From assembly GCF_056712565.1 (NCBI RefSeq), contig NZ_CM160072.1: a DNA stretch of 64,000 nucleotides; one strand, 5' to 3'. The stretch's first letter is position 1, and each line of letters begins with the position of its first letter. Below the pieces are notes generated by a model. It was not told the origin of the DNA. It searched no databases and saw only the letters and a program-made list of their open reading frames with translations. A program made the position numbers and the translations under genes. Positions 8,565 to 13,891 of the stretch are shown here, one piece after another.

Positions 8565-8571
8565 TTACGAT

Positions 8572-8606
8572 GCCGGGCGTAGGTTGTTGGCGTCCGGCTT
8601 TATATC
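8572..8606 (+). terminator. Rho-independent terminator after yegP
   Basis: GC hairpin gccgggcg...cgtccggc followed by tttatatc. Confidence 0.5.
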
Positions 8607-8688
8607 AAAATAACGCTTATTTATTGATAATTAAGATTAACCTCCGTCATTAAAATAATGAGTAAATAAGTTTCAGTATCAGAATTTA

Positions 8689-9303
8689 TCACGCCCCACA
8701 ATCACCAATCTGATCCACCACCGTCAGATACCAGTCACTGTCATAACTGTAAAGTTGACTTAAATAAAATACCAGTCCATCGTTACTCTCTTCTGGCGCA
8801 GCGACCACACGCACGGCCCCGTATTCCATTCGACGCGCTGCGGCAATCTGCGCATCAGAAATAGTATTTTGCGGTGAACCAAACATCTGCGTGAAGACCA
8901 AACTACGGCTGACTTTATGGTGAACATCGCTATTGCTAATAAAATACCCCTGCTTATTCCAGCCACGTTCGCAGTTAAATTTCGGGATAGCTTTCTTATT
9001 AAATTCGTCATCTCGCGGAACATGTTCCCCTGCCGAGGGCCATGGGAAATACTCGGGAACAGGTTGCCTGAAATTAATTTGCTTAAGATTTTCAACATCC
9101 ATCGAAGCACCACGGTGGAAAAGAACATACAAACCCGTTTTTTTATCAATTAACGAGTTGATTAATTGGGCATCTTCTTGCTGAAAGCCCATAATCACCT
9201 TTCTGGCTGTTTCCTCCAGCGTACACCCGGCATTGGCGGGTAAAGAAAAGAATATCAGCCCCACCAGCATCATTCCTTTTTTTAACATCAGCATTGTTTG
9301 CAT
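8689..9303 (-). CDS. Hypothetical lipoprotein (island gene 4)
   Basis: 204-aa ORF; N-terminal hydrophobic signal ending ANAGC (lipobox-like); AT-rich; last gene of a minus-strand cluster. Confidence 0.65.
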   Translation of the reverse strand: MQTMLMLKKGMMLVGLIFFSLPANAGCTLEETARKVIMGFQQEDAQLINSLIDKKTGLYVLFHRGASMDVENLKQINFRQPVPEYFPWPSAGEHVPRDDEFNKKAIPKFNCERGWNKQGYFISNSDVHHKVSRSLVFTQMFGSPQNTISDAQIAAARRMEYGAVRVVAAPEESNDGLVFYLSQLYSYDSDWYLTVVDQIGDCGA

Positions 9304-9354
9304 CTTCTCATCATGGGGCTCATATTACACATTTAACAATTTTCAGGATAAACC

Positions 9355-11463
9355 TTACACCATACTGTTAACCTGGCCGGGTAATTCGCTAGCTGGAATA
9401 CGAAAGGTATACCAGGCATAACGACAGCGTTTCCACAGGCTGGAGAAATGGAGATGATAAAGGCAATCTGCAATAATTTCGTTATCTGGATATAAAGACT
9501 CGGCAAAATGTGTCCAGCGCGCACTGAGTTTCATGTTAAACAGTTTTTCATCTTCTTTGTTACCATACAGGCGCGACAAAGTAATCATTGCTTCGAGCGT
9601 ACCTTTATTCGCTTCTTCTTGTACCTGTTGGAGGTGCAAATGAGCAAGTGAGAGTTCTTTCACCTCAAAGATATTAAGTAAAAAAAGCCCCCATGCTTTT
9701 TCATGTCCAGCTTCATGAGCCAGAAATAAATTGTCAAGGAGATTTTTTTCATAAATAGCCCGTGTTTCTTTAGAAATTTCTTGTTTATTTAGTGCCTGGT
9801 AGCAGATAGCAATGCTAAAATAAATATTTTGTAGATCTTGTTGATGTTCGCTATAACCATAATTTTTTACCAGTGGATAAGATACCGAGCTATGGAAATT
9901 TAGGTCATCTTGAAGTATTTTAAGTGCCCGTCGAAAATACTCCAAAGCTGTAGATGGTTCATAAGGTAATTTTGTATTGTCTTCCTTATCCAAATATTCA
10001 AGAGCAACTAAATTTAATGCGGCAGGAATATTTCTTTGCTTACCAATTGTCGCAAGCGGAATGAAATAATCAGAAAGGTCAAACCAACTCAAATCTTTTA
10101 TTGCCGACCGCCAATTATGATTGTATTTAATGTCACTAGCTTTTTCCAGCCAAGCATCGCCCTGCCCTTCATCTTTTTCAAAACCCAAAATACCCTCTCG
10201 CTGGAAAAACCCCCTATAAATAACAGGTGTAGCATAAGTTGTATTCTGTGAATTTTGGCAGATAAAATTATATATCCAGAATGAATCTGGATAATAACTT
10301 AATGCAAATTTTATCGCGTACGCAGTGTAATAATTATTGAGCTTCATGTCTTCCATCACCGCTCGCTGTATACAGCACCACAACTTATCGTGATCGTTCT
10401 GCTTGTTATAGCAGGCAAGTAACCACTCTAGGGCATTATGGCGACATTCCTGAAATTGTGCGTACTGAGCAATATTCTCTGCTAAGTCGATTGCATATTG
10501 TTGCTCCTCGGGCGCAATGTCCTCAATGCTGACATCTCGGTAATCATCCCACCAAAGTAAGAGATCCATATAGTCATGTTCTTCGGTAGATAAGTGCTTA
10601 CAGGTTACTGAATCCAGCAATTCGGAAATTTCTTTATGCGACCCTCCCCAGCGTGGCATTCGAAATGGTATATATTCAACAAAAGGATAAAAAGTGTGAG
10701 GAAAAATAGTCAGGCAAACAGAAAGCCAATATTTTTGCCCACCATCATCATCATACTCAGGAAGTATATTGGGGCGAGGCAAAACGGGGCATATTGCATG
10801 CTCAAACGAAAGTCCGGAATACGCCATCAACGCTTCCACTTCTTGCGGGGAGCGGCGGTGATAATTTTTCAGTGCGATCATTAATGGTATTCCTGCGACA
10901 CTATCACCGTTAAGGTGTGCCGCCAGCCAGGCTGGCTGACCAAATACTTTTGAGTTGGTGCTGGTAAGTAATGCAGCCATCCATTGTCGTGGGTCACAAT
11001 CAATTGCTTTAAGTGTAGCGATGACCATTTGTTCATTACATGCACCAGCACAAAGCCACATTGCATGTGTGGTATCATTTGCCCAGCCATAACTGCGATA
11101 TAACCATGCACGGTGATTCCAGTATTGTGCTTCGGCAAGCCAGGCATGTGTAGAATGAGGTCTTGCTTGCTGCCAGGTTTTAATGAGTCTTAAACCTTCT
11201 GTTCCGGCATCAACTAGCGTGTTCATATCATAAAAATAGTTGCACATTTGGGTCCAGGATAAAAAATAGCGCTTTTCAGCCTGACGAGAAGTGAAACTCT
11301 CCTGTAATACCTGGTTATAAATTTCATCTAGTTCCTGATAACGTTTTTCTTGTAACATATAAGGAATATTTGCGATTTGCCATTTTCTCTCAAGAGTATT
11401 AAGTGGCATTTTTTGGTCACACATCTTTTGCATTGCACTGAGTAAACGAGCATCCTGTTCCAT
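9355..11463 (-). CDS. Large hypothetical protein with Sel1/TPR-like C-terminal region and an HExxH motif (island gene 3)
   Basis: ORF 9355..11502; likely start is ATG at 11463 (MEQDARLL) preceded by AAGGA RBS and lying just after the upstream stop; HEAGH encoded at 9703..9717. Confidence 0.65.
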   Translation of the reverse strand: MEQDARLLSAMQKMCDQKMPLNTLERKWQIANIPYMLQEKRYQELDEIYNQVLQESFTSRQAEKRYFLSWTQMCNYFYDMNTLVDAGTEGLRLIKTWQQARPHSTHAWLAEAQYWNHRAWLYRSYGWANDTTHAMWLCAGACNEQMVIATLKAIDCDPRQWMAALLTSTNSKVFGQPAWLAAHLNGDSVAGIPLMIALKNYHRRSPQEVEALMAYSGLSFEHAICPVLPRPNILPEYDDDGGQKYWLSVCLTIFPHTFYPFVEYIPFRMPRWGGSHKEISELLDSVTCKHLSTEEHDYMDLLLWWDDYRDVSIEDIAPEEQQYAIDLAENIAQYAQFQECRHNALEWLLACYNKQNDHDKLWCCIQRAVMEDMKLNNYYTAYAIKFALSYYPDSFWIYNFICQNSQNTTYATPVIYRGFFQREGILGFEKDEGQGDAWLEKASDIKYNHNWRSAIKDLSWFDLSDYFIPLATIGKQRNIPAALNLVALEYLDKEDNTKLPYEPSTALEYFRRALKILQDDLNFHSSVSYPLVKNYGYSEHQQDLQNIYFSIAICYQALNKQEISKETRAIYEKNLLDNLFLAHEAGHEKAWGLFLLNIFEVKELSLAHLHLQQVQEEANKGTLEAMITLSRLYGNKEDEKLFNMKLSARWTHFAESLYPDNEIIADCLYHLHFSSLWKRCRYAWYTFRIPASELPGQVNSMV

Positions 11464-11473
11464 AGATATCCTT

Positions 11474-12190
11474 TTAATTAGGTTCAAAAATTTTAAATTC
11501 ATTCCACGGCAATTTTTTCCAGTTACTGGATGGATCTTTCAACCATGCAGTGACTTCCTTTAAATCACGGTTCGCAGTGGCGACGGGGGTATCGTATATC
11601 ATTAACCATTTTTGTCGGGCGCGAACATAAGCACTGGCATAATCTTCCCATGAAGCGAAACAATCTTGTGCTCTTTGAGCATTCAGTAATAACACTATCC
11701 AGGCCTGGTTTTCATCGCACCAGCCTAAACCGGCGATGCAACGAGTTAAAAAAGCAGTGCGCATACAGTCAAACGCCAGCCCATCCAGAACCTGGCCTTG
11801 TGCTGCCAGTTGTTCGTAAAAATCATGTGGAGAATTACCAAGCCCTGTAGCCCAGCGCTGTAATATAACGCCAATTTGTTGACGGAAATCTTCGTTGCTT
11901 TGGTAAGTTTCTGTTCCTAGCTCTTGTTTAACCTGTAGTGCAAGTTGTTGACGCTTATCATCAGTCAACTTTAAATCTAACGTGAAGCCATTTACTGACA
12001 GTCCATTACGACGAGCAACTATATCACCAATTGCTAATGCCCACTTACGTCTCTTTGTTGCTCGTCTTTTGTCCTTGATTAGATCCTTTTCTTTTTCTTT
12101 AGCAATAAAAGCATCGATTTGTGGTTTGTTTTTTTTGTATCTATAGATAAAAATAAATATTGCGACCAGGAGAACAATGATAAGACTCAT
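11474..12190 (-). CDS. Single-pass membrane-anchored hypothetical protein, possibly DUF1266-like (island gene 2)
   Basis: 238 aa; N-terminal TM helix LIIVLLVAIFIFIY then basic stretch; start ATG overlaps the upstream stop by 1 nt (TAATG). Confidence 0.65.
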   Translation of the reverse strand: MSLIIVLLVAIFIFIYRYKKNKPQIDAFIAKEKEKDLIKDKRRATKRRKWALAIGDIVARRNGLSVNGFTLDLKLTDDKRQQLALQVKQELGTETYQSNEDFRQQIGVILQRWATGLGNSPHDFYEQLAAQGQVLDGLAFDCMRTAFLTRCIAGLGWCDENQAWIVLLLNAQRAQDCFASWEDYASAYVRARQKWLMIYDTPVATANRDLKEVTAWLKDPSSNWKKLPWNEFKIFEPN

Positions 12191-13404
12191 TATTTTTCAA
12201 CCTCTGACAGGGGTAAGTAATGAGATGTCTGTAATGTCAAACTCTCTATCTCAAAGGAAATGTTGCTGATATTTTGACCTGCAAATTGCGGATGCCACTC
12301 AGCGCCAGGGAATAACATTTCCGCAGAAGTAGCAACTATAGGGTCAATAGCATTAAGATAATGTAACTTATCAGGTGCGCTGTGTAACAGTAACCACTGC
12401 AACTCCACTGAAGGATTTGTAAAATGTTCTAATAAATGAAAGTTATTATGTAGTACGCTTAGTAAAAAACTGGTTTCGTATACTTCCGTTACATATTTCC
12501 ACCCCTGATATTCAGGTGTATTTTCATAAACAATACCCATACCTTCACAATCACTATGTCGAACTGCTTGTGGTGATAATAGTTGCAAAAGAGACAAAAC
12601 ATCGTCCGCATATTTTTTAACTGGATGACGATTTTGCTTACCTTTTATTTGATCAATTTCAAGTGAATCACCAACAACATTGAGAGCAATAGTAACATGA
12701 GGAATATTATTATTATCACGCAAACTGAATAACCGTAATTTATGTTGCTCAATTTGATTTGCATAATACTCACCATAACCACCGGTAAGATTTTTTCGAT
12801 CATCAAACTGGCCTACGCAATGTTGCATATGCCATGATTCATAAGCCATTTCACGACGAAGGTTCGAATGACTGGCATCAAACTCAACAATTTTTCCGTC
12901 TGGCACATCAAGTATTGACTTTACAGTATTTTGTTCACTCGGCTGCCACCCTTTCTCGCGTCGTTGAAGCATCTTTTCATGCTCTTCTTCACGCATTCTG
13001 AACGCAACGTAGCAGGTTATGCGCTGTAGTTTTGATTCCAGACGGGTACCACATTTCCTGGAAAGAAATTCCACCAACTCCCGTTCTTTGGTTAATATTT
13101 GTTGATGATCGGTTTCGATATAATAAAGTGTCGCAGTTGATACTGAGGCAGTATTAAACTTCGATACCAGCCATTCCGGGATTACATCATCATTTTTATT
13201 AAACAGTGAATATTCTGCAAGCGAGTTAATTTGTTGCACCATTGGAAAGTCACTAATTAGCCATCGATAAAAATGGTTGAGTAACCATTTTTGGATGGTC
13301 TCATTATCCTGGCGAAACAGACTTCTTTGCAAAATTGCTGTTTTTACTTCCGGGGCATTAATTACATCCCTTGCATTATAATTCTGGTGAATATTTCCAG
13401 TCAT
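12190..13404 (-). CDS. Hypothetical protein (island gene 1)
   Basis: 404-aa ORF, first gene of the minus-strand cluster, AT-rich upstream region; no motif I can name with confidence. Confidence 0.65.
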   Translation of the reverse strand: MTGNIHQNYNARDVINAPEVKTAILQRSLFRQDNETIQKWLLNHFYRWLISDFPMVQQINSLAEYSLFNKNDDVIPEWLVSKFNTASVSTATLYYIETDHQQILTKERELVEFLSRKCGTRLESKLQRITCYVAFRMREEEHEKMLQRREKGWQPSEQNTVKSILDVPDGKIVEFDASHSNLRREMAYESWHMQHCVGQFDDRKNLTGGYGEYYANQIEQHKLRLFSLRDNNNIPHVTIALNVVGDSLEIDQIKGKQNRHPVKKYADDVLSLLQLLSPQAVRHSDCEGMGIVYENTPEYQGWKYVTEVYETSFLLSVLHNNFHLLEHFTNPSVELQWLLLHSAPDKLHYLNAIDPIVATSAEMLFPGAEWHPQFAGQNISNISFEIESLTLQTSHYLPLSEVEK

Positions 13405-13891
13405 AACATCCGCCCGTGTTTATTATATCACTCAAAGCAATAATTGTTGACTATAGATTTTTTATCTAAATCAGCATGGTTGCAGGTACATACTCAAGTA
13501 AGCCACTCAAGAAAATAACGTAAACTCAATAGTGGCAGCGTCACAAACTTTGGAAATTATGTCTTATATTTGCAGTTTATTTTAGTGAATAATTGAGATA
13601 AATGACATTATTTTACATCCTCAATAATTCAGGCTGTAAGAGGACGGCAAATACATTCATAATTATCAGGGGATGAACATTCAGGAAAGTAGTCAGTATC
13701 GTCAACTTTTTCTTTTATCACTACATGAAGATTTCGTGTAGATACTCCCATCTCTGCCACTTCTCCCCTCACATTTACACTGGAGCTAAACCCGCCGATT
13801 GCGCTACAATGCCCGCCCTTAAAGTGGGGGCACTCCCCTAACCGCTTCATCAGGTGAAGCGGCTCTGACCTGTCATCAGAACGAGAGAATT

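Follow-up and report, generated by a model that had tools for sequence, protein, structure and literature searches.

The pentapeptide HEAGH, found in a Sel1-like-repeat protein of 702 amino acids (aa) encoded in a stretch of 64,000 nucleotides from contig NZ_CM160072.1 (RefSeq assembly GCF_056712565.1; the whole stretch is hereafter called the window), is very probably a product of chance, located where helix meets turn in a degenerate Sel1-like alpha/alpha repeat, and not a metal-binding or catalytic site. A preliminary description of the window had pointed to HEAGH as a match to the HExxH pattern of zincin-type metallopeptidases, located in an island protein of roughly 702 aa, about 115 residues from its C-terminus, with a Glu about 13 residues downstream and within a region resembling Sel1/TPR-type helical repeats. 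Sequence and translation both confirm the motif: its codons, CATGAAGCTGGACAT, are read on the minus strand at positions 9703-9717 of the window and specify H583-E584-A585-G586-H587 in the numbering of the 702-aa protein. The distance to the C-terminus is 115 residues, and the downstream residue is Glu600, 13 residues past H587. On the plus strand, no competing open reading frame (ORF) of at least 60 aa was found over the same bases in the ORF list. The earlier interpretation as a whole is partly supported. Its suggestion that HEAGH might be a mere chance pentapeptide is upheld by the variability of the motif, by an all-helical structural model and by shuffle statistics, and it is the other suggestion, i.e. 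that of a metallopeptidase active site, that has to be given up. Both observations by which that description would have it refuted, a motif varying among homologues and a predicted repeat helix lacking a metal site, were made.

Conservation and chance occurrence of the motif

By searching 5.8 billion proteins, we found 24 homologues of the 702-aa protein. Full-length homologues with 56-66% identity were found in Klebsiella, Citrobacter, Kluyvera, Serratia and Leminorella, and relatives at 35-37% identity in Serratia fonticola and Chania. Motif columns were counted in an alignment of 20 sequences, including the E. coli protein itself. HExxH was found at the aligned position in only two of these, namely the E. 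coli protein and a homologue, P0005, carrying HEFGH. The majority form at this position is HQxGH, and the sequences without HExxH had HQYGH, HQFGH, HQLGH, HLFGH, HQYGD, HQLGR, SLYGD, SRYGD, TQFGS, DRFGS, VDWGH, ADLGS and IDWGD. The E584 column holds Glu in two sequences, Gln in 11, Asp in three, and Leu and Arg in two each. H583 is kept in 13 out of the 20 and replaced in the other seven by S, T, D, V, A or I, and H587 is kept in 12 and replaced in eight by D, S or R. The sole invariant residues at the motif (20 out of 20) are A582 and G586, with L579, A590 and L595 being invariant or nearly so. Neither of the Glu residues that could be considered as a third zinc ligand is conserved: several homologues have G, T, D, R or Q in place of Glu600, the one proposed, and at E604 most have D, T, N or S.

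The family of the C-terminal domain is small, as an exhaustive HMMER search with the C-terminal 382 residues against 1.84 billion cluster representatives (E <=0.001) recovered 32 representatives. Distant full-length members, at 20-28% identity, carry e.g. HQLGD, IELGE, HDMGH and LDLG.. at the motif, and Glu600 is exchanged in several of these members as well. A third carrier of the pattern is a Burkholderia orthologue (locus L010) with HEMGH at the aligned position, whose relative P0040, 59% identical, has HDMGH; in the same manner, P0005 is 84% identical to P0004, which has HQYGH. Because HExxH carriers have such close relatives without it, the motif is recurrent but not maintained: single Q/D to E changes have given rise to it repeatedly, and independently of each other in at least three lineages. 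The local background consensus on which this occurred reads A-[H]-[Q/D/E]-x-G-[H/D/S].

The number of HExxH motifs encountered was also compared to what is expected by chance. At least one HExxH was present in 5.3% of 20,000 composition-preserving shuffles of the 702-aa protein, and one followed by a Glu 6-30 residues downstream in 4.5% of 20,000. The window has 59 ORFs with a length of 150 aa or more (approximately 19,500 aa in total), and exactly one HExxH was found among them, with about 0.6 expected per window of such size, an estimate based on typical E. coli His and Glu frequencies. The occurrence of HEAGH is no more than chance level.

Two alternatives to the chance reading have some observations in their favor. 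One is that HEAGH constitutes a zincin-type metallopeptidase site, in which H583 and H587 would bind zinc, E584 would be the general base and E600 or E604 the third ligand. We regard this as extremely unlikely, even though the minimal HExxH pattern is matched, together with a Glu 13 residues downstream, and the pattern is found at the aligned position in two further lineages: it is at the same time absent from 18 out of the 20 homologues, including close relatives of each carrier, the position of the catalytic Glu is Gln in most of them, and HExxH occurs at chance level (P=0.053 per protein). The other alternative is a lineage-specific, non-catalytic metal or ligand patch, e.g. for His-mediated zinc or nickel binding or for pH sensing, which the E. 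coli B2 copy would have gained on its repeat surface and by which the binding of partners would be modulated. More than half of the homologues have H583, and more than half have H587, and the motif is fixed in E. coli, whose copies of the gene are nearly clonal (at least 99% identical in 294 out of 297 genomes). Fixation within a near-clonal gene is, however, uninformative on selection, no other conserved ligand was found close to HEAGH, and S, T, D, V, A, I, R and Q are all tolerated at these positions in relatives, and we consider such a patch very unlikely.

The longer metzincin signature HExxHxxGxxH was rejected by inspection, the E. coli protein having HEAGHEKAWGL, with A and L at the G and H positions. 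A zincin active site in general was rejected because of conservation, secondary structure, fold and family searches, and of there being no conserved third ligand.

The 702-aa protein and its predicted structure

The 702-aa protein (WP_000434216.1) is encoded at positions 9355-11463 on the minus strand, as judged from the ORF list, the RefSeq annotation in UTI89, where it is named 'DUF4034 domain-containing protein', and the Pfam match to DUF4034. The ORF extends to an in-frame ATG at 11502 (9355-11502, 715 aa), which would give an overlap of 29 nucleotides with the end of the neighboring DUF1266 gene; the annotated start, ATG 11463, has a better ribosome-binding site (AAAGGA), and the resulting length agrees with that of the homologues. 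Residues 30-306 (10546-11376, minus strand) make up the DUF4034 domain (PF13226), with an E-value of 1.7e-101, 339.7 bits against a cut-off of 21.3 and the full model covered. Residues 321-702 (9355-10503, minus strand) form an all-helical, Sel1/TPR-like C-terminal solenoid, which was identified from an AlphaFold2 model with a predicted local distance difference test score (pLDDT) of mostly 85-97 in this part, and from the Foldseek, profile and Pfam results described below.

The AlphaFold2 model was built from the 20-sequence alignment, and secondary structure was assigned by DSSP. Mean pLDDT was 83 (about 91 for residues 581-590) and the predicted TM-score (pTM) 0.76. The model contains 36 helices and no beta-strands. 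In the helix-turn-helix unit that holds HEAGH (9670-9771, minus strand), helix 565-584 finishes with H583-E584, A585-G586-H587-E588-K589 make up the turn, and a second helix follows at 590-598. The two histidines thus lack the spacing of one helical turn along a common active-site helix. The invariant G586 appears, from this model, to be a helix-capping turn residue. The structure prediction thereby adds further arguments against an active site, namely that the motif is predicted to be divided, one part being at the end of a helix and the other in a turn that contains an invariant Gly, and that the model has neither a beta-sheet, let alone a zincin-like fold, nor structural similarity to any peptidase.

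The top 50 Foldseek matches in the PDB were all helical-repeat proteins, the clearest ones being of the Sel1/TPR type, and no peptidase was found among them. Sel1-repeat matches included 6ok3 (E=4e-4), 8sxq, 6onw, 6ork and 4bwr (c5321 of uropathogenic E. coli), and matches of the TPR type included IFIT1, subunits of APC/C, and SEL1L. Profile searches gave a similar picture. The family profile matched the solved Sel1-repeat protein 6ur7 over residues 406-516 (E=2.3e-4), and a Pfam scan of 15 family members identified DUF4034 in 13 and, at E <=0.01, Sel1 in nine (best E=1.1e-10), with no peptidase model in any of the members scanned, which again speaks against a peptidase site. For the 702-aa protein itself, no peptidase family was found in Pfam, NCBIfam, PADLOC or PHROGs. 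Together, these results support the Sel1/TPR-type helical repeats that the preliminary description had suspected around the motif.

How closely the motif-bearing unit itself can be tied to Sel1 is a narrower matter. The homologue P0023 scored 42 bits for Sel1 (PF08238), compared to a cut-off of 30.7, and the recognizable Sel1 units of the homologues precede the motif, corresponding to positions of about 410-515 (about 410-446 for P0023). No Pfam Sel1 match was obtained for the E. coli protein even at E-values up to 10, including when residues 553-702 or 321-702 were searched in isolation. Because the E. coli segment lacks such a match, the term Sel1-like rests, for this unit, on the fold and on the A-x3-G-x3-A spacing, i.e. 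A582-x3-G586-x3-A590, which is typical of Sel1-like repeats.

The chance reading of HEAGH can, on this basis, be phrased in structural terms. A582 would pack between the two helices of the repeat, and G586 would cap the first helix and permit the tight turn. L579, A590 and L595 are likewise constrained. H583, E584, A585 and H587 show free variation, and a single Q/D to E change on the local consensus is enough to turn it into H-E-x-G-H.

Compared to known Sel1-like repeat (SLR) proteins, such as those of Oxalobacter formigenes (6ok3, 6onw, 6ork), Legionella LceB (8sxq), c5321 (4bwr) and human SEL1L, the 702-aa protein shares the all-alpha solenoid of paired antiparallel helices, and its motif-bearing helix-turn element resembles the SLR signature. 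Unlike them, its repeats are degenerate, without a Pfam Sel1 match, and its N-terminal 300 residues belong to a separate family, DUF4034. Many characterized bacterial SLR proteins are secreted, whereas no signal peptide was seen by inspection at the N-terminus of the 702-aa protein. With the zincins (gluzincins, such as thermolysin, and metzincins) it has only H-E-x-x-H and a downstream Glu in common, and it differs from them in that the motif is neither conserved nor contained within one helix, and in lacking a beta-sheet subdomain, a third ligand that is conserved, and sequence or fold similarity to any peptidase. Most likely, the 702-aa protein is a non-catalytic, cytoplasmic protein-binding scaffold.

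Within the C-terminal region, it is not HExxH but the tail at residues 687-702 (9358-9405, minus strand) that is conserved most widely, and two homologue alignments gave for it the pattern R-I-x-x-[S/H]-E-[L/I/V]-P-G-x-x-N-[S/A]-M-V. In the E. coli protein the tail reads ...RIPASELPGQVNSMV, with E693 and P695 being invariant. It is recognizable also in the orthologues of L010 (Burkholderia), L002 and L004, the first two of which are at 26-28% identity. The tail is extended, disordered and of low pLDDT in the AlphaFold2 model, and may be a docking peptide.

The islet and the conserved triad

The 702-aa gene is one of four minus-strand genes in an islet between yegP and yegQ, the gene order being mdtABCD-baeS-baeR-yegP, the four genes, and yegQ. 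The island is 100% identical to that of the E. coli UTI89, S88, IHE3034 and LF82 kind. Out of 5426 complete E. coli genomes, 297 (about 5%) harbor the 702-aa gene; UTI89, S88, IHE3034, NU14 and LF82 are carriers among those listed. The yegP-yegQ gap (approximately positions 8565-13890 of the window) is variable in E. coli, being empty in K-12, occupied by a ParD/ParE toxin-antitoxin pair in many other strains, and by IS1 in one. At the island boundaries, the search for direct or inverted repeats gave nothing but short matches of the kind expected by chance, and the RefSeq annotation has no mobility gene between yegP and yegQ. No phage copy of the gene was found, and plasmid matches were restricted to megaplasmids or chromids. 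Among the PADLOC defense-system models, only PDC-S32 was matched, marginally, by 80 residues of the 702-aa protein (E=0.0014), and none by the other three island proteins. With just this marginal match, and nothing meaningful in PHROGs, a known defense system was rejected as an explanation of the islet.

The GC content of the four-gene islet, 0.33-0.45 as compared to 0.53 in the flanks, brings up a third alternative to the chance reading of HEAGH, i.e. that the islet was acquired horizontally and that the 702-aa ORF is decaying in it, a remnant with no functional feature at all. Truncated or split copies in Salmonella and in some assemblies (P0018-P0021; L009), and a Leminorella gene without its partners, would fit such decay. 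We nevertheless judge it to be highly unlikely, given that the ORF is full-length and intact in the 297 E. coli genomes, that full-length orthologues at 56-66% identity exist in five genera, that there are about 90 invariant positions, and that gene order is kept out to Burkholderia. Based on these orthologues, the invariant positions and the conserved gene order, the 702-aa gene appears to be under purifying selection.

The conserved gene order is that of a triad, consisting of genes for a PcfJ-like protein (about 400 aa), a DUF1266 protein (about 240 aa) and the DUF4034/Sel1-like protein (about 670-700 aa), in this order, and situated at 9355-13404 on the minus strand of the window. The same three genes are found in a metagenomic contig (L002), where a 437-aa PcfJ-like protein (51% identity to its E. 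coli counterpart) and a DUF1266 protein (38%) are followed by a DUF4034 gene (28%). In Burkholderia (L010) the order is the same, with overlapping stop and start codons, and in Klebsiella (L008) it is again the same, located between baeR and yegQ, in opposite orientation and without yegP. Fusions also occur: PcfJ-like::DUF1266 proteins of 600-690 aa were found in L005, L006 and many other matches, and P0015 is a DUF1266::DUF4034 fusion. A 776-aa TPR-type protein, encoded upstream of the pair, replaces the DUF4034 protein in Pseudomonas. Going by these loci, the triad seems to be spread across the gamma- and betaproteobacteria. No homology between DUF1266 and DUF4034 was found by hhalign.

The first gene of the triad (12190-13404, minus strand) encodes the PcfJ-like protein, 404 aa in length and with a GNAT-like predicted core. 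It scored barely over the Pfam PcfJ cut-off, with 26.2 compared to 25 bits. The family comprises over 220 members, which are distributed among Enterobacteriaceae, Burkholderia, Variovorax, Pseudomonas, Lysobacter and Rhizobium, and its invariant residues include E185, E189, H195, C196, Q252, K254, G255, K256, Q257 and N258. GNAT acetyltransferases, defined here by their fold with the beta4-alpha3 pyrophosphate-binding loop (Q/R-x-x-G-x-G/A), made up nearly all of the top matches for the predicted core in two programs, and the invariant Q252-x-x-G255-x-Q257-N258 is placed between a strand and a helix, at the location of GNAT motif A. The indications of a GNAT-like fold in the PcfJ-like protein are weak but consistent, and come from this predicted core.

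The DUF1266 gene (11474-12190, minus strand; Pfam DUF1266, E=9.5e-19) encodes a 238-aa protein with a hydrophobic N-terminal segment. At its N-terminus, a hydrophobic stretch is followed by basic residues (MSLIIVLLVAIFIFIYRYKKNK), and the L002 orthologue has the same arrangement, which suggests a single N-terminal membrane anchor and a cytoplasmic body.

The fourth island gene (8689-9303, minus strand) was identified as an ORF, by its translation and as a RefSeq 'hypothetical protein', and encodes an exported hypothetical protein of 201/204 aa. It has a signal peptide, ...FFSLPANA|GC..., in which there is possibly a non-canonical lipobox, and it matched none of the families of Pfam, NCBIfam, PADLOC or PHROGs. 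Because it is absent from the other triad loci examined, i.e. L002, L005, L008 and L010 (Klebsiella, Burkholderia and metagenomic), it does not belong to the conserved core. Upstream of the PcfJ-like gene, a consensus scan found the best match to a sigma-70-like promoter at 13422-13450 on the minus strand, TCAACA-17-TATAAT with TG (10/12), a possible operon promoter given here as a pattern match, the total of such sites being no higher than in shuffles.

A DUF4034/Sel1-like homologue without the PcfJ-like and DUF1266 partners was observed at 3871-10091 in L003, the contig of P0023 (Serratia fonticola according to NCBI). There, it is situated head-to-head with a 724-aa MORN and Sel1 repeat protein and a 584-aa protein without a family match.

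In the E. coli islet, the putative scaffold would act together with the PcfJ-like protein, with its GNAT-like core, and the DUF1266 protein, with its N-terminal membrane anchor. The three proteins may interact physically, and the PcfJ-like partner may have an acyl-transferase activity. That the PcfJ-like, membrane-anchored DUF1266 and DUF4034/Sel1-like proteins make up a so far undescribed three-protein system around a GNAT-like enzyme is a tentative proposal, and one that we hold to be rather doubtful at present.

Related loci and significance

A similar gene partnership was found in E. coli K-12 (locus L014, 675570-683393), where ybeQ (Sel1), ybeR (DUF1266) and djlB, as well as ybeT (Sel1), ybeU (DUF1266) and djlC, make up two tandem sets adjoining the Hsp70 gene hscC. 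As in the island, a Sel1-type repeat gene is located beside a DUF1266 gene and a third partner, which is a J-domain co-chaperone in K-12. The DUF1266 family of the island matched YbeR in hhalign (E=4e-6, 87% probability), and the match between the 702-aa repeat protein and YbeQ was marginal (E=0.005, 8% probability). The PcfJ-like protein and DjlB were found to be unrelated. The island differs from the K-12 ybe loci in that its third partner is PcfJ-like, in that there is no adjacent Hsp70 gene, and in that its repeat protein is far larger and contains DUF4034. Taken together, the gene arrangements suggest that a partnership of Sel1-type and DUF1266 proteins, with an exchangeable third component, recurs.

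In searches of a literature library, no paper mentioning DUF4034 was found, nor anything relevant on the accession and Pfam number, nor any mention of the triad. For DUF1266, there was one paper, which has such a gene in a table of the H-NS regulon. No version of the arrangement of Sel1-type, DUF1266 and third-partner proteins has a known mechanism.

As for the motif, HExxH arises by chance approximately once per 64 kb of coding sequence, which the present case illustrates, and Sel1-type repeats are prone to yield it through their A-x-x-x-G-H/D turn. The putative metalloprotease site is of no significance, and the useful by-product of its analysis is the conserved, entirely uncharacterized triad. 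This could represent a new membrane-tethered acyl-transferase system with a conflict, defense or envelope-related role, and the way in which Sel1 and DUF1266 genes are paired in K-12, at ybeQR and ybeTU, may find an explanation in it, too. If the triad has a defined biochemical activity, three domains of unknown function would have their function assigned at the same time.

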